Program-made: the position numbers and the translations under genes
From: an uncultured Acidimicrobiales bacterium
GTDB lineage: Bacteria; Actinomycetota; Acidimicrobiia; Acidimicrobiales; UBA10347
NCBI GenBank assembly: GCA_943788915.1
Contig: CALSSD010000003.1
Location: 50,663 to 74,662 of the forward strand
Reading direction: 5' to 3'
Length of the DNA stretch: 24,000 bases
The notes under the pieces: generated by a model
What the model saw: only the letters and a program-made list of their open reading frames with translations
What the model was told of the DNA's origin: nothing
Databases searched by the model: none
Shown here: positions 3,629 to 21,839 of the stretch, piece by piece
How positions within the stretch are numbered: the first letter of the stretch is position 1
Layout: every line of letters begins with the position of its first letter

Positions 3629-4622
3629 TCAGCCGCCGATCTGGCTCATGGACCGATGCGGTCGAATGAAGTTCACCTTGCCGATTTGGTGGCCGGCCCA
3701 TTTGGCGCCAACACCCCGCTCGATTTCGGCCGCGAGTTCTTCGTCGGTTGCCCCATTACGAAGCAAGGTCCGCAGATCGAATTCGTCGACGGCGAAAAGA
3801 CAATTACGCAGCTGGCCCTCGGCAGTCAGGCGCACCCGGTCGCAGTCTCCACAGAACGCCTGGGTGACGCTCGCGATCACGCCGACCTCGCCTTTGCCGT
3901 CGAGGAAACGGAATCGCTGCGCAGGTTCGTGACCCCGCTGGATGGGTTCAAGCGGGAAGACCTCGCCAATAGCGGCGACGATTTCTTTTTGGCTGACAAC
4001 CCGGTCGTTGCTCCAGCCCTCGTCGGCGTCGAGCGGCATCCACTCGATAAACCGAACAACAACACCCTTGTCTCGACCGAAACGAGCGAAGTCAACAAGT
4101 TCGTCGTCGTTGATACCCCTCATCACCACACAGTTGACTCTTGACCGGCTCGAAACCGGCTTCGACTGCTGCGTCGATGCCATCGAGCACCGTGTCGAGT
4201 TCGTCTCGCCGAGTCAGCTCGAGGAAACGGTCCTGCTGCAGCGAGTCGAGCGAGATGTTGATCCGGCGCAGGCCTGCGTCCCTAAGAAGCTGGGCGTGGC
4301 GCCGCAACGTCGAACCGTTCGTGGTCATGGCCACGTCGGTGCCCAGCGCCGCGAGCTTTGCCACCAGCTCATCGAGATTCGCCCGCACCATGGGTTCTCC
4401 CCCGGTGAGCCGGATGCTGTCAACGCCAAACGTGTTCACCATGACGCGGGCGAGCTGTTCGATCTCCTCGAACGTCAAGATGTCGGCCCGGTCAAGCCAT
4501 TCAAGGCCTTCTTCTGGCATGCAGTACGTACACCGGAAATTGCAGCGGTCCGTAACACTGATGCGGAGATCTCGATGGACCCGTCCGAATGTGTCGACCA
4601 AAGGTCGTGCCATGCCAAACAT
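3629..4622 (-). pseudogene. moaA: GTP 3',8-cyclase MoaA (radical SAM) interrupted by a 1-nt frameshift; two ORF pieces, 4092-4622 and 3629-4183
   Basis: The N-terminal piece carries the radical-SAM motif CNFRCTYC and reads ...IDAAVEAGFEPVK, then runs out of frame (SQLCGDEGYQRRRTC*). The C-terminal piece, in another frame, continues exactly where MoaA should: VNCVVMRGINDDELVDFARFG...FCGDCDRVRLTAEGQLRNCLF...RSMSQIGG*. The junction on the minus strand is ccg gtc aag [a] gtc aac tgt. Removing one base near plus 4139 restores ...EPVKVNCVVMRG... Confidence 0.85.
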
Positions 4623-6846: not shown

Positions 6847-7746
6847 TCAGATTCCATCAGATGTTTGGGCACTGCGGTGAGCGGCACGGTCGAACGCATC
6901 GCAGGCTTCGTTTGCATTCGACGAAACGGTATCGACAACGCCATCGAAGCCAACTGCTCCGCCGGCAAGCGCTGGGCCACCTACAACGATAAAGGCATCA
7001 GGAAGTGCGGCTCTCATAGCCTTGGCCTGCTCCACGGCCGCGGGAAGAATGCCGCCGAGGACAGCACATGCGCCGATCCCTACCAAGTCATCACACCCTT
7101 GGGCAACAGCCACAAACGACTCGGTCGGCGTATTCGCACCCAAATCGATGACCGAGAAGCGACGGTCGCTGAGCAGATCCGACATCATTGCACTGGGGAT
7201 TCCGTGCGGGTCGCCGGCAAATGCCCCAATGACGATAGTCCCGCGCCGCCGCCCTCGATGTCGGAAGAGTGGACCAAGTTGGCCGAGCAACCGGTAGGTG
7301 GTCGACGTAGCACGGTGCTCGTCGGCAACCGTCAAGGCTCCACGGGCCCAACCTTCGCCGACCGCAACGAGCGCGTTGCCCAGCAGTTGACTATGCACCT
7401 GACCCGGCGTGGCTCCGGCACTGAGCGCATCGGTGATGATGTTCCAGCATCCTGCCGTGTCGCCAGCGATCAGCCGGTCGGTGAACGGCGCAACCATAAG
7501 TTGGCGCGGAGCACCGTCTCGGTCAGGAGTCTGGCGACGAGGTCCGGTACCTTCGGCGAGAACCGCTGCAAGGTCGGCAGAAGCGACCCACCACTTACCA
7601 CCCCGTTTCTCCGCGGCCATCCGGCCAGTGCGCACATACCGGTACGCCGTCATGTAATGCACGCCGAGCGACTCGGCTGCTTCGGCCAACGTTGCTAGTT
7701 CTGTCGTCGGCGACGTGCCAGCGCCAGAGCTCAACGCACGAACCAC
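6847..7746 (-). CDS. Transcriptional regulator: excisionase/MerR-superfamily HTH fused to a B12-binding helical-bundle plus B12-binding Rossmann-like domain (CarH/LitR-like architecture)
   Basis: The N-terminus LATLAEAAESLGVHYMTAYRYVRTGRMAAEKRGGKWWVASADL is an HTH_17-type helix-turn-helix. The middle FTDRLIAGDTAGCWNIITDALSAGATPGQVHSQLLGNALVAVGEGWARGALTVADEHRAT resembles the B12-binding_2 bundle. The C-terminal TIVIGAFAGDPHGIPSAMMSDLLSDRRFSVIDLGANTP...IVVGGPAL resembles the cobalamin-binding domain, with DPHGIP in place of the canonical DxHxxG. Confidence 0.8.
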   Translation of the reverse strand: MVRALSSGAGTSPTTELATLAEAAESLGVHYMTAYRYVRTGRMAAEKRGGKWWVASADLAAVLAEGTGPRRQTPDRDGAPRQLMVAPFTDRLIAGDTAGCWNIITDALSAGATPGQVHSQLLGNALVAVGEGWARGALTVADEHRATSTTYRLLGQLGPLFRHRGRRRGTIVIGAFAGDPHGIPSAMMSDLLSDRRFSVIDLGANTPTESFVAVAQGCDDLVGIGACAVLGGILPAAVEQAKAMRAALPDAFIVVGGPALAGGAVGFDGVVDTVSSNANEACDAFDRAAHRSAQTSDGI

Positions 7747-7814
7747 ACGAAGTTTGGATGTTTCATCACGCGTCGGGTTTCAGCGGAACATTTGGCAGGG
7801 TACCGAAATGGACA

Positions 7815-8108
7815 CTAGGCCACTTCACTCTCGGGTTCTTGTTCACGGTCTTCGTGTCGCGCCTTACGCGCGGCCGCGGCGACTGCTCGCCGGTGGGGTG
7901 AACGAGGTCCGAACCCTGCGGCGGCGCGTTGTTCATCGTCTTCGCCTCCCCACAGACCGTGTTCCCGCCCCGCGCGACCAGCGTCACGACATTCGTCTGC
8001 AACCGGGCAACATGCGCAATACGAGCGCGCTAGGGCCTCACGCCGATTTCGGCGGCCGTCACGTTCGCCTGGTACGGCGAAGAAGATGTGGGTCTTGCCC
8101 CGACACAT
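7815..8108 (-). CDS. whiB: WhiB family [4Fe-4S] transcriptional regulator (WhiB1-like)
   Basis: MCRGKTHIFF...ARSYCACCPVADECRDAGRAGREHGLWGGEDDEQR carries the four-Cys pattern C-x28-C-x2-C-x5-C, the G[VL]WGG turn and a basic C-terminal tail. ATG 8108 is the only start codon available (see finding on the N-terminus). Confidence 0.88.
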   Translation of the reverse strand: MCRGKTHIFFAVPGERDGRRNRREALARSYCACCPVADECRDAGRAGREHGLWGGEDDEQRAAAGFGPRSPHRRAVAAAARKARHEDREQEPESEVA

Positions 8109-8338
8109 CGCGCTTTGATGCCAATCATCGGCGCGAGGGGGCGGGAACGGGCGACCCTAGACGGTCGAGGAACGCTTGGAAATTGAGCGAATCAGCCACA
8201 CATTCTGTTTAGCACTAAATAGACTCAAATGCGGCAGGTAAATGAAGAACCGCCACCTGTCACTTTCGAAACAGCGTCGATCGATGCGATACTGGCGAGC
8301 GATGTGGAGTTCAGGCACCAAAACGCGTCGCGCTCGCG

Positions 8339-9199
8339 ATGGCCTTGTTGGCCGGTGCCTCCACCTTCTTCGGCTCTGCGCATGCTTCGCAAACCGTCGA
8401 CCCCCAGTTCCAAAACATCGTCGACGATCCGGCCCTCTTCGACCTTGAGCTGGCCCAAGCCGAACTCGACGGCCTCCGACTCGACGCCGATCGATTACGA
8501 CGTGAGCTGGCCGACGTCCTCAACACCATCGACGGTCTGACTATCGAACGCGACTTCATCGAACTCAATGATCAAGCCCGCAACGATGTCATGCAGCAGT
8601 CGCGCACCCAAGCTCGAAACATGGCGATCAGCGCGTATATCGGCATCGGCCCACCCGTCTCAAGCATCGTCGTGCTCGACGCTGCCTCCGCCAATGACTT
8701 GAGCTACCGGAACGGACTTCTCCGCCAACAAGCCGAGCGGCTCCAACAGGCGGCCCGTAACTATTCGATGCTCGCTGGGCAGGCTGACAGCGCGGTCCTC
8801 GCATATGGCGACTCGATCAACGACGCAATCCGGGTCACCGAAGCACTTAATCGGACACTTGCCCGAACCGTCGAGCAGATTCCGTACGCCGAATGGGTCG
8901 TGAGTATCGCAGAGATCCATCACCTGGCCGACGGCGAGTTCGAAGACAGCCGTCGCATACAACCAACCGCTGAGGAATGGCGCAAACTACGGTTCTGCGA
9001 GTCCACCGAGACCTACAACATCGATACTGGCAACACGTTCTATGGCGCCTACCAGTTCACCTGGGACACGTGGGGAACCGTTGGCGGCTCCGACAACCCG
9101 GCACATGCACCTGCTGCGGAGCAGGACGCCCGGGCCCGACTGTTGTACGCCACACGGGGCTCCCAACCGTGGCCGATCTGCGGCCGGTTCCTTCCGTAA
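8339..9199 (+). CDS. Secreted Rpf-like (resuscitation-promoting-factor type) transglycosylase domain protein with a coiled-coil-like N-terminal region
   Basis: The N-terminus MALLAGASTFFGSAHA/SQ is signal-peptide-like. The C-terminal WRKLRFCESTETYNIDTGNTFYGAYQFTWDTWGTVGG...AAEQDARARLLYATRGSQPWPICG matches the Rpf/transglycosylase-like domain pattern (W..l..CES..n....tGN.yyG.yQF...TW...GG...eQ...A..l....G..pWp.CG). Confidence 0.85.
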   Translation: MALLAGASTFFGSAHASQTVDPQFQNIVDDPALFDLELAQAELDGLRLDADRLRRELADVLNTIDGLTIERDFIELNDQARNDVMQQSRTQARNMAISAYIGIGPPVSSIVVLDAASANDLSYRNGLLRQQAERLQQAARNYSMLAGQADSAVLAYGDSINDAIRVTEALNRTLARTVEQIPYAEWVVSIAEIHHLADGEFEDSRRIQPTAEEWRKLRFCESTETYNIDTGNTFYGAYQFTWDTWGTVGGSDNPAHAPAAEQDARARLLYATRGSQPWPICGRFLP

Positions 9200-9235
9200 C
9201 CCAATCTCTGCGAACGACGCAATAAGCTCAGCGCC

Positions 9236-11248
9236 GTGACTGTTGCCATGGTGCTGATCTTCGCCACGTGCATCACCGCTGGCGTCGGTTTGACCTTCCA
9301 CACCGGACTCGACATGAGATCCGAGGAACGGTTTTTTGGGGGCTGGGTCCTTGGCATCGTGGCCTTCACCCTCAGCGGCATCCTGTTCACCCGGCTGTTC
9401 AGCTTTGGCGGCGCGGCCGTTGCAATCGCTGCGGTCGGGGTACTTGCTGCCTCATTGCCGGGTTGGCGCCGAGGCACAACCCAATGGCACCGAGAGATCA
9501 GCGATCTTCGCGAACGGCTGGCCCAGCCGCTCCTAAGCGGCAAGAACCCCATAGTGCTCGCAGCACTCCTGCTACCAGTGTGGGTGCTCATCGGTCGCAT
9601 GTTCTACTTTGCCTACCAGACCAGCGCCGACGGCGGGATTGCGGTTGGGCACCTGGCAACGTTCTCGGATTGGCAGGCGCACCTGACCTACACCGCGTCA
9701 TTCGCCTACGCCGACAACACAGCACTGAACCTGCCTCTCGCCACCGGCAACAACATCGGTTACCACGCAGGCATCAACTATTTCTCGGCGTTACTCATCC
9801 CCGCCGGAGCAACACTTCCCGGAGCCCTGCAGGTCTCCGGCGCATTCACGCTCATGGCTTTCCCTGGTGTGATGTACAGCGTTGGCATGCGAGTGTTCAA
9901 TCGCCAGGCCGTAGCGCTACTTGGCACCACCCTCTTCCTCTTCTTTGGTGGCTGGGGCTTCATCGACTTCTTCCGAGACCTGGCTGACGGCGGAGCCGAA
10001 GTGCTGAGCAGCCTGCCTCGCACCTACACCCGACTCCCTGACATCCCGACAGCCCAGGGCCAGACCTGGTGGAACACCAACCCGATCGTGCTCGAGAATC
10101 CGATCGTGGGCCACTTCTTCCCGCAACGACCCACCATGATTGGGTTCCCCCTCGTACTGCTGGTGTTGGGTTGGTTGTACACCGCCTGGTCCGATATCGA
10201 AGACCGAGGCACGGACCGGACCCGAACACTCCTCTTCTGTGGCGTGCTCGTTGGGCTCACACCGTTCTTCAACCTGTTTGCCTTCGGCGTTCCGCTGGCG
10301 TTTGTCGGCGTCTGGTGGATCGGCACCCGGTTCCGAACCGAGTGGTTGTACTTCTTGCTACCCGCTGCGCTGCTCGCATCACCCGTCGTACTGTTCCTGC
10401 AACCGCCATCGAGTTCGCTCGAATACCCGTATGACTGGGTCGAACATATTCGCAACCCAGCTGGGGTCCCCGACGACCTTGGCGCCTTCAGCCGAGTCGG
10501 CCATTGGATCACGTTCTGGTTCCGCAACCTCGGTTTCTTCTTGCCGTTACTCGTCGCTGCCCAGGTTGCGCGCGGGGTGTTACCCAAACGGTTGGCAATC
10601 GGCCTCACCCCCCTGTGGCTGTTCTTTGTCGTGCCGAACGCGATCAAGCCCCATCCATGGAATGGCAACAACACCCACTACTTCATCTTCGTGCTGCTGC
10701 TCGGGGCTCTTCCAATTGCAGCGTTGCTCGTACATACCGCCCGCAAGATGCCCCTCAGCACGGTCGCTATCGTGCCGCTGTGTTTCACGCTGATGGCCAG
10801 CGGCTTCATTGATGTGCTCGTCACGAACGACCAGGCAACCTCGCCGTGGCCCCTTACCGCAATGGACAGCGCTGGCGTCGCTGTCGGCGAATGGGCCCGA
10901 ACAACCGACACCGATGCAGTCTTTGTCATCGAGCTCGGGTGGGCCGAAGGCCAGGCATCACCACATCAACATCCGGTGCCGGCGCTCAGCGGGCGTGACG
11001 TACTTGTCGGTAACGACGGCTGGGTCTTTGACCTGGGCATCGAAGACTGGTCCGTCCGTAAAGACCATTCTCGAATCATTCTCGAAGCGGGTGCCGGGTA
11101 CAAAGATCTGATTGACATCTACGATGTCGACTACCTGGTTGTCGGGCCAAACACCCGCACCCCCAACTGGGATCCAAACATTGCGTTCTGGGAAGAGGCA
11201 GCAGATGTCGTCTATCGACATGCCGGCTGGACTGTCTACGAAGTCTGA
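9236..11248 (+). CDS. 670-aa polytopic membrane protein, GT-C-like; apparent divergent paralog of the DUF2298/YYY module, with a C-terminal soluble domain
   Basis: The long ORF is hydrophobic for about 520 aa with many TM-length segments. An acidic pair follows the first TM helix (LDMRSEERFFGGW; EE at 9323-9328). The loop GHLATFSDWQAHLTYTASFAYADNTALNLPLATGNNIGYHAGINYF parallels [38 protein letters not shown] of the 1490-aa protein. The C-terminal ...DLIDIYDVDYLVVGPNTR...VVYRHAGWTVYEV parallels ...FLRAFDVSYVIVGSLER...LVFGNEQLGIYAV. The start could be GTG 9236 or ATG 9248. Confidence 0.8.
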   Translation: MTVAMVLIFATCITAGVGLTFHTGLDMRSEERFFGGWVLGIVAFTLSGILFTRLFSFGGAAVAIAAVGVLAASLPGWRRGTTQWHREISDLRERLAQPLLSGKNPIVLAALLLPVWVLIGRMFYFAYQTSADGGIAVGHLATFSDWQAHLTYTASFAYADNTALNLPLATGNNIGYHAGINYFSALLIPAGATLPGALQVSGAFTLMAFPGVMYSVGMRVFNRQAVALLGTTLFLFFGGWGFIDFFRDLADGGAEVLSSLPRTYTRLPDIPTAQGQTWWNTNPIVLENPIVGHFFPQRPTMIGFPLVLLVLGWLYTAWSDIEDRGTDRTRTLLFCGVLVGLTPFFNLFAFGVPLAFVGVWWIGTRFRTEWLYFLLPAALLASPVVLFLQPPSSSLEYPYDWVEHIRNPAGVPDDLGAFSRVGHWITFWFRNLGFFLPLLVAAQVARGVLPKRLAIGLTPLWLFFVVPNAIKPHPWNGNNTHYFIFVLLLGALPIAALLVHTARKMPLSTVAIVPLCFTLMASGFIDVLVTNDQATSPWPLTAMDSAGVAVGEWARTTDTDAVFVIELGWAEGQASPHQHPVPALSGRDVLVGNDGWVFDLGIEDWSVRKDHSRIILEAGAGYKDLIDIYDVDYLVVGPNTRTPNWDPNIAFWEEAADVVYRHAGWTVYEV

Positions 11249-13400
11249 AGCCACCACAACCGAAACTGTTAAACCAGGCGACGACCGGTTGGTCATCGCT
11301 GGCTTTCGCATGCCGCGGACCGGCCCGCTCGTCGTGCTGTTCCTAGCACTTGCGCTTGTGCTGAGACTGTGGGAGCTCGGCGAGCGACCGTTCCATCACG
11401 ACGAGAGTCTCGACGCGTGGTGGAGCTGGCGATTCCGCAACGGCGAATACACCGGCTACGACCCGGTGTACCACGGGCCACTTCGTTTCTACATCACCGC
11501 CGGTTTCTATGAACTCTTCGGCGAGACCGATGCTGTAGCTCGGCTCTTCTCCGCTCTGACCGGTACTGCGGTCGTTGGATTACCTTGGTTCCTACGACGC
11601 GAACTCGGACGAGCCGGCACGATTGCGGCCGCAGCGGCGCTCACCGTTTCGCCCACGATGTTGTACTACTCCCGGTTCGGGCGCGAAGACGCCCAGATGG
11701 TGTTCCTGACTCTGTTGGCAATGGTCCTTGGCCTGTCGTACCTTCGTTCACCTCGGGCGCTCACAGCGACTGGGCTCACGTTCACACTTGCTTGCAGCTT
11801 TGCCATCAAGGAGTCCACGTATCTGTTCGGGCTGCTGCTCGCAGTCTTCATGCTGATCATCCTGGCTGCCCAGTTCGATGCGCAAAACCGGGTGGCAGCC
11901 GGAACCGAAGCAGACGCCAACAAGCTCAATCCCGCATTCGTCAGTGCAACCTTGGTCTTTGCGAGCGCAGGTCTCACGGTCGTCGCCGTCATCGGGCATT
12001 TGTCCGGTGAACTGTTTCCTCTAGTTGCGATCTATATGGCCGCACTCGCTGCGTTCGTGCTAGCCACTGCGCTCCCCCGTATCCGAGGCCGCCACACCGA
12101 CCCCGACTACGAATGGCCTTCACTCATCAACGCGATCACGGCGATTGGTTGGCGAGGCTGGTCGGTTGCACTCGGTGTCTTTGCTGTTTCCTGGTTGTTG
12201 TTCTTCACCGTATGGTTTCGCGAACCCGGCGACTGGGCGACAGGTTTCACTCGAGCCATCGAGTATTGGGATAGCCAACAAGAGGTCAACCGCGGCGGCC
12301 AACCCTGGTACTACTACCTCTACGCGCTGCCGATTTATGAATGGCTGTTCGTTGTACTTGCGTTTATCGGCGGATGGCGGGGCTTGCGCAAACCCACAAT
12401 GATGTCGGTGCTCATGGTGTGGTTTGCCGTAGGAAGCCTGATTCTGTACAGCTACGCAGGCGAACGTATGCCATGGCTTATCGCCCATCCTTTGCTTCCT
12501 ATCCTGATCCTGGCAGCGCTTGGGGTGCAGCATCTGTGGCAGCATCGCAGCCGGGTCGGCATGCCTGCGGTCGGTGTTGTCTTGGGACTGGCGTTGTTGT
12601 TCACTACGAGCACGTCGATTCGTGCCAGCTTCTCGAATGGGGCCGATAGTCGCGAGATCCTGAGCCAGGCCGGCCAGGCCACACCCCACCTCACTGCTGG
12701 GCTCGCCCGCCTCGAAACGATCGACGAGATCTCCCTGCGAGAAACCGGCCAACCTGCCCGGCTCGCCATTGGGTCAGCCAATGCGTGGCCCTACAGCTGG
12801 TACCTGCGCGATCGGGCTGGTATGACCTGGTTCAACAGTTGTGACGGGCCACCAGTCGATGGTTCAGCCGATGTCATCATCGTCGACCGTAACCTGACGT
12901 GCACGACTGATAATACCTCCCGAGAGTTGCGGCCCCAGGAAGAGTTCGTTGACTACCAGTCCACGCTTTTCGCGATGCGATCATGGTGGGTTCCGACCTA
13001 TAACGATGCCGGTCCGCTCGGCTGGATCCGATATGCCCGTGACCGTACCCTTTGGCAGCAAAACCCGAATCCGGGGTTTGTCGGGGTACGAGACGTCGCA
13101 GACGAGGATGTCGACGGCGGCATCGGCGCAACGCTAAACCGAATTCAGGACGGGGCCGACTCCGCCGCCGATGGGTTCGTGGGATTCGCCGGCGCCGATG
13201 ACGATCGGGTACCCGACCCCATCAACCCTGGCGCATTCGTGGAACCAGAAGACGGCCGTGATGGCTGCGGTTCGGTCGATCAATGGTTCCTGGTTCACAA
13301 CCGTTTCGCTTTCAGCGAACGGGTTGTCGATTCCGGTCCGATCGAAGCAATAGCTCCACTCGCCTGCGCGAGCGACCCGAACTCAACCCCTCGGGGATAA
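11205..13400 (+). CDS. Polytopic membrane protein of the TIGR03663 type (PMT_2/ArnT-like GT-C; in NCBI naming I believe 'flippase activity-associated protein Agl23' family)
   Basis: LRLWELGERPFHHDESLDAWWSWRF...GYDPVYHGPLRFYITAG...TVSPTMLYYSRFGREDAQMVF contains the DE dipeptide (11400-11405) and HGP tripeptide (11472-11480), which I recall as the invariant TIGR03663 residues. TM segments continue for about 450 aa, followed by a C-terminal soluble part. I chose the start at ATG 11205 because GGAAGAGG lies 6 nt upstream; this overlaps the upstream gene by 44 nt. ATG 11220 or 11310 are alternatives, and the ORF-track start 11112 is unlikely. Confidence 0.85.
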   Translation: MSSIDMPAGLSTKSEATTTETVKPGDDRLVIAGFRMPRTGPLVVLFLALALVLRLWELGERPFHHDESLDAWWSWRFRNGEYTGYDPVYHGPLRFYITAGFYELFGETDAVARLFSALTGTAVVGLPWFLRRELGRAGTIAAAAALTVSPTMLYYSRFGREDAQMVFLTLLAMVLGLSYLRSPRALTATGLTFTLACSFAIKESTYLFGLLLAVFMLIILAAQFDAQNRVAAGTEADANKLNPAFVSATLVFASAGLTVVAVIGHLSGELFPLVAIYMAALAAFVLATALPRIRGRHTDPDYEWPSLINAITAIGWRGWSVALGVFAVSWLLFFTVWFREPGDWATGFTRAIEYWDSQQEVNRGGQPWYYYLYALPIYEWLFVVLAFIGGWRGLRKPTMMSVLMVWFAVGSLILYSYAGERMPWLIAHPLLPILILAALGVQHLWQHRSRVGMPAVGVVLGLALLFTTSTSIRASFSNGADSREILSQAGQATPHLTAGLARLETIDEISLRETGQPARLAIGSANAWPYSWYLRDRAGMTWFNSCDGPPVDGSADVIIVDRNLTCTTDNTSRELRPQEEFVDYQSTLFAMRSWWVPTYNDAGPLGWIRYARDRTLWQQNPNPGFVGVRDVADEDVDGGIGATLNRIQDGADSAADGFVGFAGADDDRVPDPINPGAFVEPEDGRDGCGSVDQWFLVHNRFAFSERVVDSGPIEAIAPLACASDPNSTPRG

Positions 13401-13434
13401 TCGGGCCACGACGCCCAACCCCTTCAACCGTGAC

Positions 13435-13485
13435 GCAAATTTGGAGCGTGGTGTACCCATTTCGTACATCATGCTCCTAATTTGC
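13435..13485. terminator. Extended imperfect hairpin in the 91-nt gap between convergent genes; possible bidirectional terminator
   Basis: The outer arms are GCAAATTTGGAGC (13435-13447) and GCTCCTAATTTGC (13473-13485), pairing at 12 of 13 positions. They enclose an inner stem TGTAC/GTACA with a 7-nt loop. The element is AT-rich relative to its surroundings. There is no clear U-tract on either strand, so terminator function is only inferred. Confidence 0.4.
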
Positions 13486-13491
13486 ATTTCG

Positions 13492-16400
13492 CTAGCCGTC
13501 GGCAACGGCGGTAAGCGCAGCCCGGGGCGCGTAGGCAAGCATCTGTTTGTCGACTGCGTAAATACCGAGTTGCTCGTTGCCAAAGACCAGTCGAAGCGAC
13601 GGATTCTCGGCAAACAGTTCGAGCGTGCGAGGGTTCGCAACCGCACGTTCGAGCGACCCGACGATCACATACGACACGTCGAATGCTCGCAGGAACGAGT
13701 CAACAACCTCCGGCGATTCGGTGGTGTAGAACTCGGCAACTTCGCGTTTGCGGTCGTTGACCTCGTAGTCAAACAGGGTGCGTTGTTGACTTTGATGCCA
13801 GCGCCATCCGAGCACCGTGGGCAACCCAGCATGGATGCTGATCCGCCCCCACCATTGGTACTCGCTGCCGCCAACAGCTTCGACAATAGTTGGCCGGCCC
13901 TGCACGTTCGTTTGCAGCCATTCGATGATGGCGCGGTCCTGTCCGGGATCGACGACGGCATCGTTGCCGTTAACGTCGCGTATGCCAAAGCTGTATCGGC
14001 CTGGTTCGAGCCAAAGATCACCGTCGAGTGACGGCCCGAGTGTGGTGTCGATGCGGTTCGCCTGCCGAGGCGAGATGGACAACGCTGGATATACCAACGA
14101 TGCCAGCAGCAACAGCACCACGCCCCGGGCGAACCAGCGCCTGGCCACATCAAGCCGTGACGCTGCGGGCATTTGTTCATCGGACGCTTCACCAGTGGGG
14201 CGACGCAAGAGCGGGCCGACCAGCCACGATGCGCCAAAGGCGCCTGCGATGGCGAACAGATGCCACACCTGTAACCAGAACTTGAAGACCGTGTTCAGCC
14301 GAGCAACGTCGGCGTCTTGAGTAAAGGTCTCCACACCTACGAGCACAACAAACCCAAGTGCAAGACAAGCAGCGACAAAGACGTGAGGCGTTGATGGCCG
14401 CGGCCCGGCCACCTCTGCGAACAACAGCAGCAACGCTGCCATAAGCCCAACAAAGGACATGGCAGCGACCGATCCCACTGAAATGCCAAGCCCGGCGAAC
14501 CCGAGTGCTGCGGCCCCGGCGATCACCATCGTGATAGCAGCTGCCTCGGTTGTGAGCCGATCGCGATGACCCCACACCCGAACCCCCATGAACGAAACCC
14601 CGATGAACAGGAACAGTCCCCAGTGCGTGAGCCAGTCATCGAGGTTGGTCACGGACTCGGATCGGCTGAAACCAGACTCGGCAACCTGATTGTTGGCCCG
14701 ATAGGGCGCAGTGACCGCCATATGCGCTACTCCAGCGAGCACGAGCTGACCGACAGCGAACCGGGCACGCCACCACACCGGACCACGGGCCATCGTCCAG
14801 CCGAGCACGATGGAACCTACAACAAACACCACGAACGTCGGCATGTCCCAGGTGTGGACCATTCGCATGAACCCACTGCCGATACCGAGCCCGAATGCCA
14901 ACACCCAAGTAGATATCGCTTTACCTTGGCGGGCCCGTTCGATGAACGCGATACAACCAGCCAGACCAAGCCCGAAGAATGGCATGGCCATGAAGTGCGG
15001 GTGCAGGTCAGCAAACAACACGGTGAAGCTCGGGAACTCGGTCACTTCAAAGCCACAAGGGGTTAGGTCAGGACCGCCACATGTCGGCGTAAAGAGCGGG
15101 TCCGAAAGCCGGTTTACATCCCAGATGACCGACTTGTTGACACGACTTGGGTCCCACCAATCGAATTCAGACAACGGCAGGCCACTGCGAAGCCGGTTGA
15201 TCACCTGACGGAATCCATCCAGGTTGCCAATAACCAAGAAGATGAGCGTTGCGAAGAGGCCAGTGGCTTCGGGACTCAGTGGTTTGTCACTCCGCCGGCG
15301 GGCAAGTTCAACAAGCATGGCGGACGTCGAGAAGACCGTGACGGCCGCGAGGGCTGCATAGGTCGCAACACCCAGGTTGAAGCCGACGTCGGGTCCGAAC
15401 CCGAGAAGCCGGATTGGGACAGCCAGCACGAACCAGCCCATGTAGTAATAGTTCAGCGTCCCACCAGCGAACCATGGGTCAAAAGGCGGCAGCGTTGTTG
15501 AGCCGGTGACGGCGGTCAGGTAGGCCAGCTCCATTGGTTTCTCGCCACCGCGCCAGGGATGCCACACGTCGGGGTTATTCGCTCGGAGCCAGATAACGAA
15601 CAGAAACACAGCGATGAATACCGCTTCGGCGGCAATAATCGTGCGTTTGTGAGCTGTCCACAGATCACGGATTTCCCGGCGACGGCTATGGGCCAGACAT
15701 GCCGCAATGCCGACCATGAGGAGCAACGCCAGCCACACCAATTGACGTGACATGTTGACCACACCCGACGACACGAGCAGCCAGACAGGTAACGAGAACA
15801 CGACCAGTGAAAGGGGTTTACTCAAGCCGTAGACCGCTCCCCCGGCGCGCCCGGCGTAACGCATGAGCGTTGGAGCCACGGTGAGCGACACGACCTGCAG
15901 CAAGACGAACCACAACCCAACCGCAACCGGGCTACTGGGGTCAAACGAGTGCACATCAGAGAACGAACTTCCGCTTTGTTGCGTCTCGTATTCGTCGGGG
16001 CGCAGCATGCTGGCGTTTGCGAACGCATCACGGGGTTCGGCATTGATTGCCGTGCGTGCTCGGTCGGGATTCAATAATGCAAACGCTCGTTCAACGCTGA
16101 ACAGTTCGGTCTTGCGCCAGATGAACACCGTGGGGTGGTCATACAACGTAAATGCCTCTTCGGCACTGGTGTCATCGATAGTGATCCCAAGCAGCGACGG
16201 CTGGTTCTGGAATGTCTTGACCAGCTCGAAGCCCAAAGAACCGTCGAAAAGTGTGTCGTAGTACTCCGTCATTTGTGGGAAACGGGCAGGAGTCCTCGGC
16301 AACGAGTCGTAGAACTTGTTGCTGGTTTCGATCACGTAGTCGACCTGGTCGAGGCCGCTGATCAACAATTCAATGCGCTCGGGCGAGTCGCCGCCGAACG

Positions 16401-17964
16401 AGAACGGCTCGAGGGTGACACGGCCGAAGTCCGATGCTTGACCCCACGGCAAACCGTCGTCCCACGCCTGCTGACTGACCACTGATTCCGCAGGCAGGTT
16501 GTCGAGCATCCAATCGCCTGCGGCCAGCCGGGCGTTGGTGTTGCCATACACCCCGTTGACGAACGCGAGAGCCCAGAAAACTGTCGCTCCGATCGAAACG
16601 GCGACGGCAACCTTGATGGCTCGAGCCAGCGTGGCCCTGGCCGGGGCAAGGGCGACAGAGGCTCGCCATGCAGCGATCAGTCCGGCAGCACTCAACGCAG
16701 TGATGATGGGGTACGTGGGTTGCAGGTACCGAACGATGGCATAGAACTGCAGAGACACCAGCAGGAAGTACGACCCAATGACGGCGAGTGGCACCGCCCA
16801 ATACCGCTCGCCACGAACGAAACGCCGACCAGCACGCAACAGACCGAAGAAGGCAGCGAACCCGAGGCCGGGGCCCATACCCCATAGAAACATTTGTGTG
16901 AGAGGGTGGATCAGCGGGGTTCGTCCAACCAGCGGCTGCACCCACGGCCAATTGCCGCCTTGATTGATGTCGGAGAGATAGTCGATGTCTTGGGTGAACC
17001 GGTCGTTGAACACCAGCGACAGACCGGCCTGAAAGTCATACGGCTGGGCGATGCGGTAGGCAACCACAGCAAGCAGCGCCATGACCAAATATGGCTCGAT
17101 CGATCGAGCCATACGCCCGAGGACCCCTGGTGGAATCCGAGACTTGGCCAGGAGACCCAGTTCCGGGCCGATCACCACCATCAACGCAGCGAATGGAGCT
17201 GCAACAGCAGCGACACCGCTGAGCTTGGATGCAATGGCGAGACCAATGGCGACCGCGGTGAAGACGCGTGTGCGCCATCCGCCTCGATGACGGGCCAGGC
17301 GGACACTCCCCCACACGCCGCAGGTGACGAAGAACGCAACCCACGGCTCGCTGCCCAAGAAGTGTGCATACTGAATGTGCAGGACCGTCAGCGACTGCAA
17401 CAACGCCGCAAGAAGCCCAACCTTGCGGTCGTCGGTGAGTTCTCGGGCCAAGAAAAACACCGCTGCCACGGTCATCGTATCGATCAGAGCGCTCATCAAC
17501 CGGCCGATGATGGTGACGTCGTAGCCGGTATTAAATCGAAGCCGGTTGCCGATTGGTTCAGCGGCTGGTTCGTTGCGTGCAACATCAATGCCAACGCTGT
17601 CGATCATCCCGACTGCCCACGACATGGTGTCGGTCATGAGTACACCCGCGGCGGCCTCCGACGCCCACAGAGGAAGGGTGCCGTACACATAGTTCGGCTT
17701 GTAGACCCGGGGGTTCAGCGTGGACTTCTCTGGGTCAAGAACCTCGCTCCACCGCCACTCGTCGGGGTTCTCGACGTTGGCAGCGACATCGCTCCAAAAA
17801 CGTTCATCGGGCTGTAGATGAGTGCCTCGATCCCAGTCCAGGTTCCAGGCTCGGAGCACGAATGCCAGCAACAGGATCGCTGCAAGTATCCAACGCGTGC
17901 GCGAGCCATGCCGACGGCGCTCAACTGACGCCGGAGGCGTGTTTGTTGTGAGTGGAGACGCCAT
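13492..17964 (-). CDS. Giant (1490 aa) polytopic membrane protein: an N-terminal GT-C/PMT_2-like module fused to a DUF2298 / TIGR03662 'Chlor_Arch_YYY' module
   Basis: A single uninterrupted 4473-nt ORF. After the first TM helix comes WNLDWDRGTHLQPDERFW (DE at 17803-17808). Module 1 ends in a soluble stretch ...AEEAFTLYDHPTVFIWRK (around 16111-16143). Module 2 has ...NPDVWHPWRGGEKPMELAYLTAVTGSTTLPPFDPWFAGGTLNYYYMGWFVLAV (YYY at 15442-15450), the motif I remember as defining DUF2298/TIGR03662. The C-terminal soluble domain reads ...GLPTVLGWRWHQSQQ...FDVSYVIVGSLER... Confidence 0.9.
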   Translation of the reverse strand: MASPLTTNTPPASVERRRHGSRTRWILAAILLLAFVLRAWNLDWDRGTHLQPDERFWSDVAANVENPDEWRWSEVLDPEKSTLNPRVYKPNYVYGTLPLWASEAAAGVLMTDTMSWAVGMIDSVGIDVARNEPAAEPIGNRLRFNTGYDVTIIGRLMSALIDTMTVAAVFFLARELTDDRKVGLLAALLQSLTVLHIQYAHFLGSEPWVAFFVTCGVWGSVRLARHRGGWRTRVFTAVAIGLAIASKLSGVAAVAAPFAALMVVIGPELGLLAKSRIPPGVLGRMARSIEPYLVMALLAVVAYRIAQPYDFQAGLSLVFNDRFTQDIDYLSDINQGGNWPWVQPLVGRTPLIHPLTQMFLWGMGPGLGFAAFFGLLRAGRRFVRGERYWAVPLAVIGSYFLLVSLQFYAIVRYLQPTYPIITALSAAGLIAAWRASVALAPARATLARAIKVAVAVSIGATVFWALAFVNGVYGNTNARLAAGDWMLDNLPAESVVSQQAWDDGLPWGQASDFGRVTLEPFSFGGDSPERIELLISGLDQVDYVIETSNKFYDSLPRTPARFPQMTEYYDTLFDGSLGFELVKTFQNQPSLLGITIDDTSAEEAFTLYDHPTVFIWRKTELFSVERAFALLNPDRARTAINAEPRDAFANASMLRPDEYETQQSGSSFSDVHSFDPSSPVAVGLWFVLLQVVSLTVAPTLMRYAGRAGGAVYGLSKPLSLVVFSLPVWLLVSSGVVNMSRQLVWLALLLMVGIAACLAHSRRREIRDLWTAHKRTIIAAEAVFIAVFLFVIWLRANNPDVWHPWRGGEKPMELAYLTAVTGSTTLPPFDPWFAGGTLNYYYMGWFVLAVPIRLLGFGPDVGFNLGVATYAALAAVTVFSTSAMLVELARRRSDKPLSPEATGLFATLIFLVIGNLDGFRQVINRLRSGLPLSEFDWWDPSRVNKSVIWDVNRLSDPLFTPTCGGPDLTPCGFEVTEFPSFTVLFADLHPHFMAMPFFGLGLAGCIAFIERARQGKAISTWVLAFGLGIGSGFMRMVHTWDMPTFVVFVVGSIVLGWTMARGPVWWRARFAVGQLVLAGVAHMAVTAPYRANNQVAESGFSRSESVTNLDDWLTHWGLFLFIGVSFMGVRVWGHRDRLTTEAAAITMVIAGAAALGFAGLGISVGSVAAMSFVGLMAALLLLFAEVAGPRPSTPHVFVAACLALGFVVLVGVETFTQDADVARLNTVFKFWLQVWHLFAIAGAFGASWLVGPLLRRPTGEASDEQMPAASRLDVARRWFARGVVLLLLASLVYPALSISPRQANRIDTTLGPSLDGDLWLEPGRYSFGIRDVNGNDAVVDPGQDRAIIEWLQTNVQGRPTIVEAVGGSEYQWWGRISIHAGLPTVLGWRWHQSQQRTLFDYEVNDRKREVAEFYTTESPEVVDSFLRAFDVSYVIVGSLERAVANPRTLELFAENPSLRLVFGNEQLGIYAVDKQMLAYAPRAALTAVADG

Positions 17965-17988
17965 CTGCGATCGGTGAGACTCAGCCAG

Positions 17989-18261
17989 CTACTTACGAGG
18001 CACCAGGTGAGGGACTTCGGACTTCATGGCCTGTAAGACCTGACTCAGGCTTGGGTTCACGAGCGATTTCGAACCGATCCGCAACGTCGGAACGGTCTCG
18101 TTGCCATGAGCAACAGACTTCACAAACGCCCGGTCACGTTTGTTCTCCCAGATATTGTGTTTCTTGAACGTAACGCCCGCATTCTTCAGCCGACGCTCGA
18201 GACTCATACAGAATCCGCAGCCTGGCCGCCAGAAGAAATCGATGTGGTCTTGGCTCGTCAC
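17989..18261 (-). CDS. Mycoredoxin / actinobacterial glutaredoxin-like protein (CxxC = CGFC)
   Basis: VTSQDHIDFFWRPGCGFCMSLERRLKNAGVTFKKHNIWENKRDRAFVKSVAHGNETVPTLRIGSKSLVNPSLSQV fits the GlrX_actino pattern (W CxxC ... GN.TVPT ... NPS). I place the start at GTG 18261 because AAGGAG lies 7 nt upstream. The ORF-track start 18366 would overlap the divergent ABC-F gene. The stop lies only 24 nt upstream of the giant gene's ATG. Confidence 0.85.
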   Translation of the reverse strand: MTSQDHIDFFWRPGCGFCMSLERRLKNAGVTFKKHNIWENKRDRAFVKSVAHGNETVPTLRIGSKSLVNPSLSQVLQAMKSEVPHLVPRK

Positions 18262-18327
18262 GGTGGTACTCCTTGCTGACCCCGCAACACTACCGACCAT
18301 GCAGTACATCAACGGTGGCAGGCAGCA

Positions 18328-20079
18328 GTGATTCTGATCGACGTACACGACGTGACGTTGCGCCATGCCCGAGGCGAGGTGCTGTCCAAGGTCTCGCTAA
18401 CCGTGAGCTCTGGCGATCGACTTGGGGTGGTGGGCCACAATGGCGCCGGCAAGTCCACCCTCCTCGGTATCGCAACCGGCGACATCACCCCCGACAGCGG
18501 CATCGTCCGCAAGGAAGGCGGGGTACAAGTTGCCACACTCCCCCAGCGTCCGGTGTTCGACGATGTCACTGCCCTGGAAGCTGTTGGTGACTCATGGGAA
18601 GCTGCCGCTGTTCTCGACCGGCTCGGCCTTGGCCATCGCACAGGAGACCGGGTCCAGGTCATGAGCGGTGGCGAACAACGTCGCGTCGCCTTGGCTCGAG
18701 CGCTCGTTGCACCTTCTGACCTCCTCGTGCTCGACGAACCAACAAACCATCTCGATATTGATGCCATCGACTGGCTCGAAGAACGGCTAAAGAACTTCAA
18801 GGGCGGGTTGCTCTGTGTGTCACACGATCGACATCTCCTCGATGCCATCACGACTCGGATTCTCGAAGTCGATGCCGGCAACCTCTACATGCACGATGGC
18901 GGTTACCGCGCCTATCTCGATGGACGCGAGGCCAGAGTCGATGCCTCGGACAAGGCCGAAACCGTCCGCAAGAACCTTGCTCGCCGGGAAAAAGAGTGGC
19001 TGCTGCGGGGCGCTCCTGCTCGAACCAGCAAGTCCAAGGCACGTATTCGCACCGCCGAAGCAATCCAGGAATCAGGGATAAAACGCGGCCTGCGCGACGA
19101 AGGCCTAGCACTGCACAGCACCACTCCGAGACTTGGCAACACGGTCATTGAGCTGAGCAACGTCCGGGTCGAGATCGGTGACCGCGTTCTCGTCGAAGAT
19201 TTCACTATCGAGTTAGATCCTCGAGAACGCCTTGGCATCGTTGGGCCAAACGGAACCGGCAAGTCGACCCTGCTCGACACGATTGCGCTTCGCCGCGAAC
19301 CCGCAGCTGGCACTGTCCGCCACGGCTCAACGGTGCGACTGTCGTACTTCGACCAACTTGGACGCACACTCGATCCATCAAAGAATGTGATCGAGATGTT
19401 CACCGGCGGCAACCGCGACGCTGACTGGCGGGACAAGGCCCTCCTTGAGCGTTTCTGGTTCGATGCGGCGACCCAACACTCCCCGATCGATCAACTGTCA
19501 GGCGGCGAGCGACGTCGGCTGCAACTTGTACTCACCCTGGCTGAAGAACCAAATGTGCTGCTGCTCGACGAACCAACCAATGATCTCGATCTCGACACGT
19601 TGCGTGCCCTTGAAGATTTTCTCGAAGACTTTCCTGGAGCCATCGTGGCCGTAAGCCACGACCGGGCATTCCTTGAACGGGTGGTCGACGATGTCATCGT
19701 CGTCGACGAATCGACCCGAGTCGGCCGGGTGCCAGGCGGATTCGGGGCGTGGCTCGAAGAACGCCGTCAGAACCGTCGCCGGGGTCATGCTTCCACTCGA
19801 TCCACAGACGAGGCACCGAGCTCCACCAAAACCGCTGCTGTCCGCCATAAGGACGCTGGCGGCGCATCGAAATCCACCTTGCGCCATCGGCTTAAAGAAA
19901 CAGAGAAGCTCATCAAGAAGGCCGACAAGAGCGTCACTGCACTAACTGCTCAACTTGCCAACGCAACAGATCACTCGACCATGGCGTCGTTGGGAACCGA
20001 ACTACACACGGCGCAGGCAGCGCTCGACACGTTGGAAGAGCAGTGGATGGAGACCTCACTCGAACTCGAAGAGGGTTAG
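18328..20079 (+). CDS. ABC-F family ATPase (two ABC domains, no TM domain; Uup/EttA-like translation or ribosome-associated factor class)
   Basis: There are two Walker A motifs (GHNGAGKST, GPNGTGKST), two signature motifs (MSGGEQRR, LSGGERRR) and two Walker B motifs (LLVLDEPTNHLD, LLLLDEPTNDLD). A charged interdomain linker reads KNLARREKEWLLRGAPARTSKSKARI. The C-terminal tail is coiled-coil-like. Confidence 0.93.
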   Translation: MILIDVHDVTLRHARGEVLSKVSLTVSSGDRLGVVGHNGAGKSTLLGIATGDITPDSGIVRKEGGVQVATLPQRPVFDDVTALEAVGDSWEAAAVLDRLGLGHRTGDRVQVMSGGEQRRVALARALVAPSDLLVLDEPTNHLDIDAIDWLEERLKNFKGGLLCVSHDRHLLDAITTRILEVDAGNLYMHDGGYRAYLDGREARVDASDKAETVRKNLARREKEWLLRGAPARTSKSKARIRTAEAIQESGIKRGLRDEGLALHSTTPRLGNTVIELSNVRVEIGDRVLVEDFTIELDPRERLGIVGPNGTGKSTLLDTIALRREPAAGTVRHGSTVRLSYFDQLGRTLDPSKNVIEMFTGGNRDADWRDKALLERFWFDAATQHSPIDQLSGGERRRLQLVLTLAEEPNVLLLDEPTNDLDLDTLRALEDFLEDFPGAIVAVSHDRAFLERVVDDVIVVDESTRVGRVPGGFGAWLEERRQNRRRGHASTRSTDEAPSSTKTAAVRHKDAGGASKSTLRHRLKETEKLIKKADKSVTALTAQLANATDHSTMASLGTELHTAQAALDTLEEQWMETSLELEEG

Positions 20080-20757: not shown

Positions 20758-20829
20758 CTGAGGACCGCGTAACTGGGGACTGCGTAACTGGGGACCTTGT
20801 AACTGGGGACCGCTTTACTCGAGACTTAG
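20755..20829. repeat. Tandem array, 15 bp x 5 (TAACTGGGGACnnnn), filling the whole gap between two convergent stop codons
   Basis: Read directly from the sequence. The units are taactgaggaccgcg (20755), taactggggactgcg (20770), taactggggaccttg (20785), taactggggaccgct (20800) and a degenerate ttactcgagacttag (20815). Unit 1 starts with the TAA stop of 20134-20757. Unit 5 contains the stop (tta, 20826-20828) of the minus-strand gene. Confidence 0.93.
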
Positions 20830-21731
20830 CCGCCGGTGCGCAACGGTGGCGGGTTATCGCGATTGCTCACCAGCGTGAGTGCATTCGCCAGCACGGCGTC
20901 TGACTGCACGGCGTCGACGACCGGCTGAGCGATCTGGCCACCTGCGACGTCTTCGAAAAGTAGCGGCACCGCATCGAAGAGAAATTCGGTGTTCGCGGAT
21001 CCGCCCACCGGTCCACAATGGACTACCTGCACAGCTGCATCGCCGAGTTGGCCGAACCAACAGCTGGCTGTTTCATCGAGAACAACTCCACGTTCGACGG
21101 CGAACTGTTGGTGCCATATTCCCAGCTCGTCGAGAACGCGTGTGCCGTTCAGTACCCGCAGGCTGCCTACCTCGATGGTTTCAGAAGTTGCAAAACCAGC
21201 ACCCTGGCCGATGGAACCGCTGGGTGGTTCGACTTCGAGGGCCTCGATCGCGTCCAACTCAACCTGGCCAATGATCCCGCCTTCTTCGAGGTCCTGGACA
21301 CGAGCCTCTTGCCCCTGGTCGAGCTCGACCGGCTCCGCTACGACGCCTGACCGATCATGATCCCACAGCAACAAGACAGCGACGGCAAGAGCTGCGATCA
21401 GCCCCAGCAGCCCCCAGAGCACCGGCGCCCGGCTTCCCCCTTCGGCAGAGGGGCCGCCCATCACCGGCGGGTCGAGGACCGCAACGACGCGAGCCGACGA
21501 CTCTTCCATCAGCGAGGCCTGGAGGTGACGCGGCGTGGCAGCGGGCGCAACCGCAGCCTGCATCGGCTGGTCGAGTAGGTCAGACTCATCGATTGCGGCG
21601 ACCGTTGTCGACGAAAAGTCCGAATCGATTGCTGCAGTGCCCTTATCGCTAACGCGTTCTGTCCACGATTCCCCATCGAAGAATCGGCCGTCGAAGCGGC
21701 CGAGCGGGTCTACATACCAGTCAGCATCCAT
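20826..21731 (-). CDS. DUF2510-type membrane protein (N-terminal WY.DP.G..R.FDG..WT motif, single TM helix, extracytoplasmic domain of unknown function)
   Basis: MDADWYVDPLGRFDGRFFDGESWTERV is the DUF2510 signature. The TM helix is VLWGLLGLIAALAVAVLLLW. I set the start at ATG 21731 because GAGGAG lies 9 nt upstream. The ORF-track start 21740 abuts that Shine-Dalgarno sequence. Confidence 0.78.
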   Translation of the reverse strand: MDADWYVDPLGRFDGRFFDGESWTERVSDKGTAAIDSDFSSTTVAAIDESDLLDQPMQAAVAPAATPRHLQASLMEESSARVVAVLDPPVMGGPSAEGGSRAPVLWGLLGLIAALAVAVLLLWDHDRSGVVAEPVELDQGQEARVQDLEEGGIIGQVELDAIEALEVEPPSGSIGQGAGFATSETIEVGSLRVLNGTRVLDELGIWHQQFAVERGVVLDETASCWFGQLGDAAVQVVHCGPVGGSANTEFLFDAVPLLFEDVAGGQIAQPVVDAVQSDAVLANALTLVSNRDNPPPLRTGG

Positions 21732-21839
21732 CAAGACCATCTCCTCGTTGCGTCTCGATCGCTACATGATCGTAGTGCCAACTGTTCTATGCTCTGGCCG
21801 CGCTCCGTGCCTACAAGTCTGCCAAGGCGCATCCCCGCC

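Follow-up and report, generated by a model that had tools for sequence, protein, structure and literature searches.

In a 24,000-nt stretch of DNA from an uncultured Acidimicrobiales bacterium (contig CALSSD010000003.1, positions 50,663 to 74,662; subsequently referred to as the window, at its full length), three large membrane proteins are encoded side by side. We call them P2, P3 and the giant. Judged from sequence profiles and structure models, they carry four modules of the glycosyltransferase GT-C type that fall into two classes. One pair of modules, with a member from each class, is split over two genes (P2 and P3), and the other is fused in a single polypeptide (the giant). We have not found this pairing rule reported before. 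The three are very probably GT-C proteins that handle polyprenyl-phosphate sugars. As to the function as a whole, we lean towards a reading in which the two module pairs use lipid-linked sugars that are produced elsewhere and act on them on the outer side of the membrane, the acceptor most likely being a protein.

Four GT-C modules in three proteins

Together, the three genes occupy 8.7 kb, or 36% of the window, and their positions and sizes are those given in a first-pass annotation of this DNA. That annotation had described three GT-C-like proteins that are hydrophobic almost throughout. The GT-C assignment holds for all of them: P3 and the N-terminal half of the giant are assigned by hidden Markov model (HMM) matches to the Pfam families PMT_2 and PMT, and P2 and the C-terminal half of the giant by AlphaFold models. 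However, the giant is a fusion of two modules, so that the modules number four, and each protein has an acidic soluble domain of 130–260 aa. The main features are the following (TM, transmembrane):

9236–11248, plus strand: P2, 670 aa, 14 TM helices; GT-C family not described before, YYY-like class, predicted C-terminal extracytoplasmic domain
9323–9331, plus strand: E30-E31-R32 motif of P2, invariant (36/36), predicted cytoplasmic
9668–9682, plus strand: D145-W146-x-x-H149 of P2, invariant (36/36), in predicted outside loop 125–193; candidate catalytic acid
10859–11245, plus strand: C-terminal soluble domain of P2 (residues 542–670), homologous by hhalign to its counterpart in the YYY half of the giant
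11205–13400, plus strand: P3, 731 aa, about 13 TM helices and a 264-aa acidic tail; TIGR03663/Agl23 family, PMT_2 type; reading frame open from 11112
11394–11408, plus strand: HHDES motif of P3 (residues 64–68, with D66-E67 encoded at 11400–11405), predicted first outside loop, 55/55 homologs
11472–11480, plus strand: HGP motif of P3 (residues 90–92, within YHGPLRF), kept in 55/55 homologs
13492–17964, minus strand: giant, 1490 aa; fusion of a PMT-like half and a YYY/DUF2298 half
15961–17964, minus strand: N-terminal half of the giant (residues 1–668), PMT-like GT-C module (DE class) with a 210-aa acidic soluble domain behind it; PF02366
17803–17808, minus strand: D53-E54 of the giant (QPDERFW), predicted first outside loop
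13492–15960, minus strand: C-terminal half of the giant (residues 669–1490 and stop), chlor_Arch_YYY/DUF2298 module with a modelled GT-C fold; TIGR03662, PF10060
15436–15453, minus strand: NYYYMG signature of the YYY domain (giant residues 838–843)

P2 and P3 overlap by 44 nt if P3 starts at 11205. The giant is transcribed convergently with them, and its gene is 91 nt from the end of P3.

The first class, the DE class, is PMT_2/Agl23-like and consists of P3 and the N-terminal half of the giant. Its members are predicted to have their N-terminus inside and an acidic DE pair in the first outside loop; an Asp-Glu motif is found in the first outside loop of PMT-type enzymes. The second, the YYY class, resembles STT3, DPY19 and AftA and consists of P2 and the C-terminal half of the giant (the YYY half). 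Here, the N-terminus is predicted to lie outside, three TM helices come before the core, the first large outside loop contains conserved D, E or H residues, and the proteins end in homologous soluble domains. A conserved acid is present in the first predicted extracytoplasmic loop of all four modules (D66/E67 in P3, D53/E54 in the giant, D145 in P2 and D799/E808/D829 in the YYY half). Topologies were predicted from hydropathy combined with family-wide K/R counts, following the positive-inside rule.

By its HMM score, P3 is a bona fide member of TIGR03663 (266.3 bits, E 5e-79, cutoff 126.25). It also matches PMT_2 (PF13231, 45 bits), while it stays far below the cutoff of the Pmt equivalog model (19 bits, cutoff 800). 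Its N-terminus is rich in K and R and is followed by TM1 and the DE loop, which should place the N-terminus inside and the DE loop outside, at the position of the canonical first outside loop of GT-C proteins. The codons of the DE pair are located exactly where the first-pass annotation had put them (11400–11405), and the proposed conservation of the pair is borne out by all 55 homologs that cover the DE/HGP region. The C-terminal tail of P3 (residues 468–731, window 12606–13397, plus strand) is acidic (39 D/E vs 21 K/R), contains several cysteines and is covered by TIGR03663 only in part; homologs of P3 vary in length between about 614 and about 928 aa. We also noticed a GQPWYYY stretch in a predicted outside loop (residues 364–371, window 12294–12317, plus strand), with at least 95% conservation at each of G364, W368, Y370 and Y371. 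The stretch is reminiscent of the NYYY signature found in the YYY domain, a resemblance that may be a coincidence or may point to a common donor-binding element.

In the N-terminal half of the giant, residues 152–256 match the PMT core (PF02366, 39.5 bits). The N-terminus is again K/R-rich, so that the D53-E54 loop is predicted outside. This pair, too, is encoded at the positions given before (17803–17808), and the residues P-D-E-R around it are at least 90% conserved among 33 full-length homologs, the pair being nearly invariant. Neither a PMT_4TMC nor a MIR domain was detected in this half. The DE class therefore resembles the PMT enzymes (GT39) in its matches to PF02366 and PF13231 and in the first-loop DE, and differs from them in the low equivalog score of P3, in the lack of detectable PMT_4TMC and MIR domains, and in having as its partner a module of the other GT-C class instead of a second PMT.

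The C-terminal half of the giant belongs to the chlor_Arch_YYY/DUF2298 family, with residues 682–1471 scoring well above the TIGR03662 cutoff (447.7 bits, E 1e-133, cutoff 300.25) and a match to DUF2298 (PF10060) of 304 bits (E 2.5e-90, cutoff 27.8). The NYYYMG signature is present and conserved, its three tyrosines being kept in 34, 33 and 33 of 34 sequences. The TIGRFAM description of TIGR03662 covers single-domain proteins and proteins with two copies of the domain plus TPR repeats, and the family also occurs in Archaea. In the giant, by contrast, a PMT-like module is fused in front of the domain. The predicted layout has the chain enter the membrane from the outside, after the acidic soluble domain of the N-terminal half, and pass through three preliminary TM helices before the conserved loop. 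D799, E808 and D829 lie in the first large K/R-poor loop, which is predicted to be outside.

P2 did not match any Pfam or NCBIfam model at E ≤ 0.01. The HMM matches expected by the first-pass annotation were thus found for P3 (TIGR03663) and the giant (TIGR03662 and DUF2298) and not for P2, which resembles the TIGR03662/DUF2298 family without being a member; the links between them are a profile-profile match of the C-terminal domains and a common fold. P2 represents a large family not described before, with 73 close homologs found in a word-indexed search and 4042 clusters at 50% identity in a profile search. Within the C-terminal domain, half of its relatives show weak sub-threshold matches to DUF6798, a model of 61 residues.

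The AlphaFold2 model of P2 (36-sequence alignment) reached a pLDDT of 90.8 and a pTM of 0.91, and that of the YYY half (residues 669–1490, 34-sequence alignment) a pLDDT of 88.5. In Foldseek searches of the PDB, the best matches of P2 were yeast and human STT3 (E 1e-7), then DPY19, PglB and AftA. For the YYY half, STT3B came first (2.5e-6), then DPY19, AftA and AglB, with PglB also among the matches. With either model, every match at E ≤ 1e-3 was a GT-C enzyme. According to these models, DUF2298 adopts a GT-C fold, and P2 belongs with it to one structural subclass of GT-C proteins. STT3, AglB and PglB (GT66) are among the best structural matches of both proteins (E 1e-7 to 4e-4) and share with them a multi-TM core and, behind it, an extracytoplasmic domain at the C-terminus. 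However, the identity is only 9–13%, and P2 and the YYY half have three extra N-terminal TM helices and a predicted outside N-terminus. A WWDYG motif (WWD[YWFN]G) was found in none of P2, P3 and the giant, and there were no STT3-family models among their Pfam and NCBIfam matches. Lacking this motif, none of them is an STT3-type oligosaccharyltransferase in the family sense. DPY19 (GT98) and AftA (GT85) are likewise top structural matches, and both use dolichyl- or polyprenyl-phosphate monosaccharide donors. Unlike the structures, the sequences show no similarity to these two enzymes, and their acceptors (Trp in thrombospondin repeats and galactan, respectively) have no known counterpart here.

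The relationship between the modules can only be seen at the profile level. Pairwise BLASTP of P2 against P3 and against the giant was not significant, and P3 against the giant gave only E 0.002; searches of PDB chain sequences with the P2 profile, both giant halves and P3 returned no meaningful matches. With hhalign, the C-terminal domain of P2 (542–670) and that of the YYY half are homologous (probability 97.4, E 1e-11). A permissive alignment is co-linear through the membrane region and sets P2 loop 125–193 opposite the NPD...GGEKPME...FDPW...NYYY loop of the YYY half, the confidence for this extension being low. For the DE class, the families of P3 and of the giant N-terminal half can be aligned over 171 columns, and HHDES then stands opposite HPDER (probability 96.3, E 2e-9). 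Comparisons across the classes were insignificant (probability 0.1–26). The description of P2 as a third paralog therefore stands at the level of fold and profile, but not at that of pairwise BLASTP. A 'WW' motif that seemed common to P2 and the YYY half was discarded, as it is not conserved within the P2 family.

The first-pass annotation had taken an EE pair just after TM1 of P2 as the equivalent of the acidic residues in the GT-C catalytic loop. The pair is encoded at 9323–9328 as stated, does follow TM1 and is invariant in 36/36 sequences. However, its loop (23–32) contains 1.9 K/R per 10 aa across the family, and loop 76–105 is K/R-rich as well, compared to only 0.8 K/R per 69 aa in loop 125–193. 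Because the predicted topology puts the EER loop in the cytoplasm, it is probably not the canonical catalytic loop, and the equation was probably wrong. The same prediction suggests that loop 125–193, with D145, W146 and H149, is the equivalent of the GT-C catalytic loop, which makes D145 the better candidate for the catalytic acid of P2.

Pairing of the two classes in other genomes

Neighbourhoods were counted in the 80 best GTDB species-representative loci, the denominators being the testable cases; individual loci named below carry a number with an L. A P3-type gene is located directly downstream of P2 in 60/73 loci. No P3-type gene was detectable in the other 13/73, most of which are from Dormiibacterota or Chloroflexi. 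In the loci of these groups, P2 is preceded by a PMT gene and mostly followed by a different PMT_2 gene. In one distant locus, which by its gene content is probably non-actinobacterial, a P2-like gene is followed by a TIGR03663 gene (214 bits). The conserved core is a YYY-class plus a PMT-class gene. The large genes also occur together in related loci, so that the first-pass annotation was right to expect them outside this genome. With this, the four points on which it had staked its proposal (HMM matches, a GT-C core in predicted structures, conserved first-loop acids and co-occurrence elsewhere) all turned out in its favor.

Nine Dormiibacterota and related loci (L004, L065, L069, L070, L073, L074, L079, L083 and L086) have a true PMT gene (PMT + PMT_4TMC) upstream of P2 and a short PMT_2 gene downstream; they thus show three GT-C genes in a row and contain no Rpf, glutaredoxin or giant gene. 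Long open frames upstream of P2 homologs in Dormiibacterota had raised the possibility of an N-terminal PMT fusion. We rejected this, because the stretches have no Pfam match and the PMT is encoded in another frame.

Fusions of PMT_2 and DUF2298 are widespread in Acidimicrobiia and Chloroflexi. As the fused module types are found elsewhere as adjacent genes, a physical or functional coupling can be expected (the 'Rosetta stone' argument), and we infer that the working unit is a heteromeric or tandem pair of a DE-class and a YYY-class module. Such a two-module unit recalls the PMT enzymes, which work as Pmt1-Pmt2 dimers.

None of the loci of the sponge-associated Poriferisocius clade contains the giant. 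In L019, L020, L039, L040, L042, L046, L047 and L062, which belong to this clade, a glutaredoxin gene stands directly after P3. The 4.5-kb giant gene would appear to have been lost cleanly here, or else to have been gained in particular lineages. On two distant contigs (L091, 6951–13476; L092, 6947–13668), giant PMT_2::DUF2298 homologs of 31–36% identity come last in a series of a GT4 gene, a SAM-methyltransferase gene and the giant. The three genes overlap or abut, and the arrangement may be a conserved operon that hints at a methylated sugar. Remote P2-like genes cluster with GT2, GT4, YfhO or PMT genes. Both kinds of context fit the synthesis of glycoconjugates.

Proposed function and alternatives

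The NCBIfam name of TIGR03663 is 'flippase activity-associated protein Agl23', and one member has been characterized. Agl23 of Haloarcula hispanica was purified and shown to translocate M5GN2-PP-Dol in liposomes, and it suppresses the deletion of rft1 in yeast (PMC11182771). The first-pass annotation, according to which no substrate has been defined for any member, is therefore out of date on this point. P3 is like Agl23 in its TIGR03663 score, in its DE and HGP motifs and in its position next to a YYY-type protein. It is unlike Agl23 in being bacterial and in extending about 190 aa past the C-terminal end of the model, and its partner P2 is a divergent YYY-like protein that TIGR03662 does not recognize. 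Within TIGR03663, translocation of lipid-linked sugars is known only for the H. hispanica protein. The lipid carrier of P3 would presumably be a bacterial polyprenol rather than dolichol.

In the mechanism that we favor, cytoplasmic loading of polyprenyl phosphate with a sugar would be the task of enzymes whose genes lie elsewhere. The resulting lipid-linked sugar would be bound by the DE-class module, which would possibly also help in its translocation, as reported for Agl23. On the outer side of the membrane, one or both modules of a pair would then pass the sugar on to an acceptor, most likely a protein that is secreted or exposed at the surface. A protein is favored as acceptor because most of the nearest structural relatives (STT3, PglB, AglB and DPY19, and by HMM also PMT) glycosylate proteins.

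Several points weigh against this mechanism. The structural matches are modest (Foldseek TM-scores of 0.31–0.54 at 9–14% identity). We found no literature on DUF2298/YYY (PF10060, TIGR03662), DUF6798 (PF20604) or the P2 family, and no activity, donor or acceptor is known for a DUF2298 or P2-family protein. The only characterized TIGR03663 protein has been described as a flippase, not as a transferase (PMC11182771). In the 24-kb window, we could detect neither a donor synthase (GT2, Ppm1/DPM1 type) nor a dedicated flippase. Adjacency within Acidimicrobiia is confounded by a strong class-wide synteny. Finally, the giant follows P2 and P3 convergently in only 19/54 loci, and the two pairs therefore need not act in one pathway.

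From this last point, it could be argued that P2/P3 and the giant serve separate glycosylation routes and stand side by side through genome history. The lack of the giant in the Poriferisocius clade and the distant giant homologs in operons with GT4 and methyltransferase genes would agree with such a view. On the other hand, the convergent arrangement persists at about 30% identity in Microthrix, marine Acidimicrobiaceae and other lineages, and we regard separate routes as rather unlikely. They would also leave untouched the coupling within each pair (P2 with P3, and the halves of the giant with each other), which is the core of the mechanism favored above.

A different division of labor between the modules is also conceivable. 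The DE-class modules could be translocators or scramblases of the Agl23 type and only the YYY-class modules catalytic, each pair being a coupled flippase and transferase. The membership of P3 in TIGR03663 and the translocation and yeast rescue reported for Agl23 speak for this, and the fusion or adjacency to a second GT-C module would suit the hand-off of a donor. However, the invariant first-loop DE and the homology to PMT and PMT_2 are hallmarks of catalytic GT-C enzymes. In addition, the reconstitution of Agl23 used a non-native substrate, and what part Rft1-type proteins and other flippase candidates play has itself been described as a long-standing question (PMC11182771). A purely translocating DE class thus appears possible but somewhat improbable to us.

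The acceptor could also be a polysaccharide. In Mycobacteriales, Emb, AftA-D and Mpt build wall polysaccharide or lipoglycan from polyprenyl-phosphate sugars, and the modules described here might elongate or branch a cell-envelope glycopolymer in a similar way. The host is an actinobacterium, and giant homologs are coupled to genes for a GT4 enzyme and a methyltransferase. Of all matches, AftA has the highest TM-scores (0.48–0.53 with P2 and 0.42–0.54 with the YYY half), and AftD and EmbC appear among the matches as well, although weakly. The Rpf-like muralytic enzyme encoded next to P2 would hint at a product linked to peptidoglycan; an Rpf gene is found upstream of P2 in 46/72 loci. Yet this linkage is no stronger than that of the unrelated ferrochelatase gene, which is upstream in 50/64. 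The best E-values were obtained with protein glycosyltransferases (STT3, DPY19, PglB), and the families also occur in Dormiibacterota, Chloroflexi and, going by the TIGRFAM description, Archaea. Arabinogalactan-type walls are not known from any of these three groups. All in all, a glycopolymer product seems unlikely.

It is tempting to go further and to regard the YYY-class modules as a new class of extracytoplasmic glycosyltransferases, each in an obligate pair with an Agl23/PMT_2-class module that delivers and perhaps flips the lipid-linked sugar. We consider this doubtful at present. If true, a coupled machine for translocation and transfer would exist in Acidimicrobiia, Chloroflexi and Dormiibacterota and, going by the TIGRFAM description, in Archaea, and the reported flippase activity of Agl23 would be recast as one half of a two-module enzyme. 

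The DUF2298/YYY proteins and those of the P2 family, the latter with more than 4000 sequence clusters, are large, widespread membrane proteins to which the models now assign a GT-C fold. They are systematically paired, by adjacency or fusion, with Agl23/PMT-type modules, and this provides a testable hypothesis for both families. It bears on how lipid-linked sugars cross membranes, and on whether Agl23 acts solely as a flippase or forms one half of a transferase. For the Acidimicrobiia, a rarely cultured group that is common in oceans, sponges and activated sludge, our results point to an uncharted pathway of surface glycosylation.

Rpf-like, glutaredoxin and other genes of the window

Two smaller genes flank the three large ones:

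8339–9199, plus strand: Rpf-like gene, 286 aa, Transglycosylase-like domain at residues 210–281
17989–18366, minus strand: open reading frame (ORF) of the glutaredoxin family, mycoredoxin-like, with a CGFC motif and a Glutaredoxin HMM match; translation probably starts further inside, for example at 18261

The Rpf-like protein matches PF06737 (63.6 bits, E 2.7e-17, cutoff 27) and falls below the Rpf and RpfC equivalog models (67 and 52 bits, cutoffs 180 and 200). Its CES motif lies at what we take to be the position of the catalytic Glu of Rpf. The redoxin matches the Glutaredoxin model (42.8 bits, E 6e-11). The first-pass annotation had named it a mycoredoxin, a designation that does not hold by TIGR02200 (69 bits, cutoff 89.5).

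Both genes had been proposed as parts of the system. In the most inclusive form of this idea, five genes form a single machine in which the Rpf-like hydrolase opens the peptidoglycan and the mycoredoxin acts as a regulator. The spacing is indeed tight, with 36 nt between rpf and P2 (not 37 nt, as given before) and 24 nt between the redoxin gene and the giant, which it precedes on the same strand. Moreover, the whole arrangement is kept in relatives down to about 36% identity of P2. However, the genes for ferrochelatase, an Fpg/Nei-type DNA glycosylase and ABC-F are equally conserved at the same loci, as would be expected from synteny at the class level. Rpf and glutaredoxin genes are absent from all loci of Dormiibacterota and Chloroflexi, and also from the other examined loci outside the Acidimicrobiia (L007, L088-L090). 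The glutaredoxin gene follows the giant in 10/18 loci and is also found directly after P3 in 8 loci without a giant. The redoxin has no signal peptide or TM helix, while the catalytic loops are predicted to face outward. A five-gene machine is therefore very unlikely. The two genes are conserved only within the Acidimicrobiia, where their adjacency is indistinguishable from class-level synteny, and they look like bystanders.

The G+C content of the window is about 60%, and its closest relative is a metagenome-assembled genome of an uncultured Acidimicrobiales bacterium, with a P2 that is 86% identical. Rfam and tRNA scans of the window gave no matches, and a promoter and terminator scan of 7700–18500 gave results no better than shuffled sequence. 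The remaining genes are housekeeping genes: MoaC, a split MoaA, ferrochelatase, the Fpg/Nei-type glycosylase, a MerR/B12-binding regulator, WhiB, ABC-F, NifU, a kinase and uridine kinase. Three ORFs stand apart from these (480–1193, plus strand; 1922–2848 and 20826–21740, minus strand). Two of them (237 and 308 aa) have no Pfam match, and the 304-aa protein matches only DUF2510, at its N-terminus.

The moaA gene (3629–4622, minus strand) is apparently frameshifted. Its Radical_SAM part (4092–4622) and its Mob_synth_C part (3629–4183) form overlapping ORFs in different frames. In a relative, MoaA is a single protein of 327 aa, and the gene in the window is either a pseudogene or contains an indel error of the assembly. 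Upstream of the rpf-like gene (6847–8108, minus strand), we found a regulator with a MerR-type helix-turn-helix and a B12-binding domain (CarH/LitR-like, 6847–7746) and a WhiB-like ORF (7815–8108). The same order of the MerR/B12-binding regulator and WhiB before rpf recurs in loci L002 and L003.

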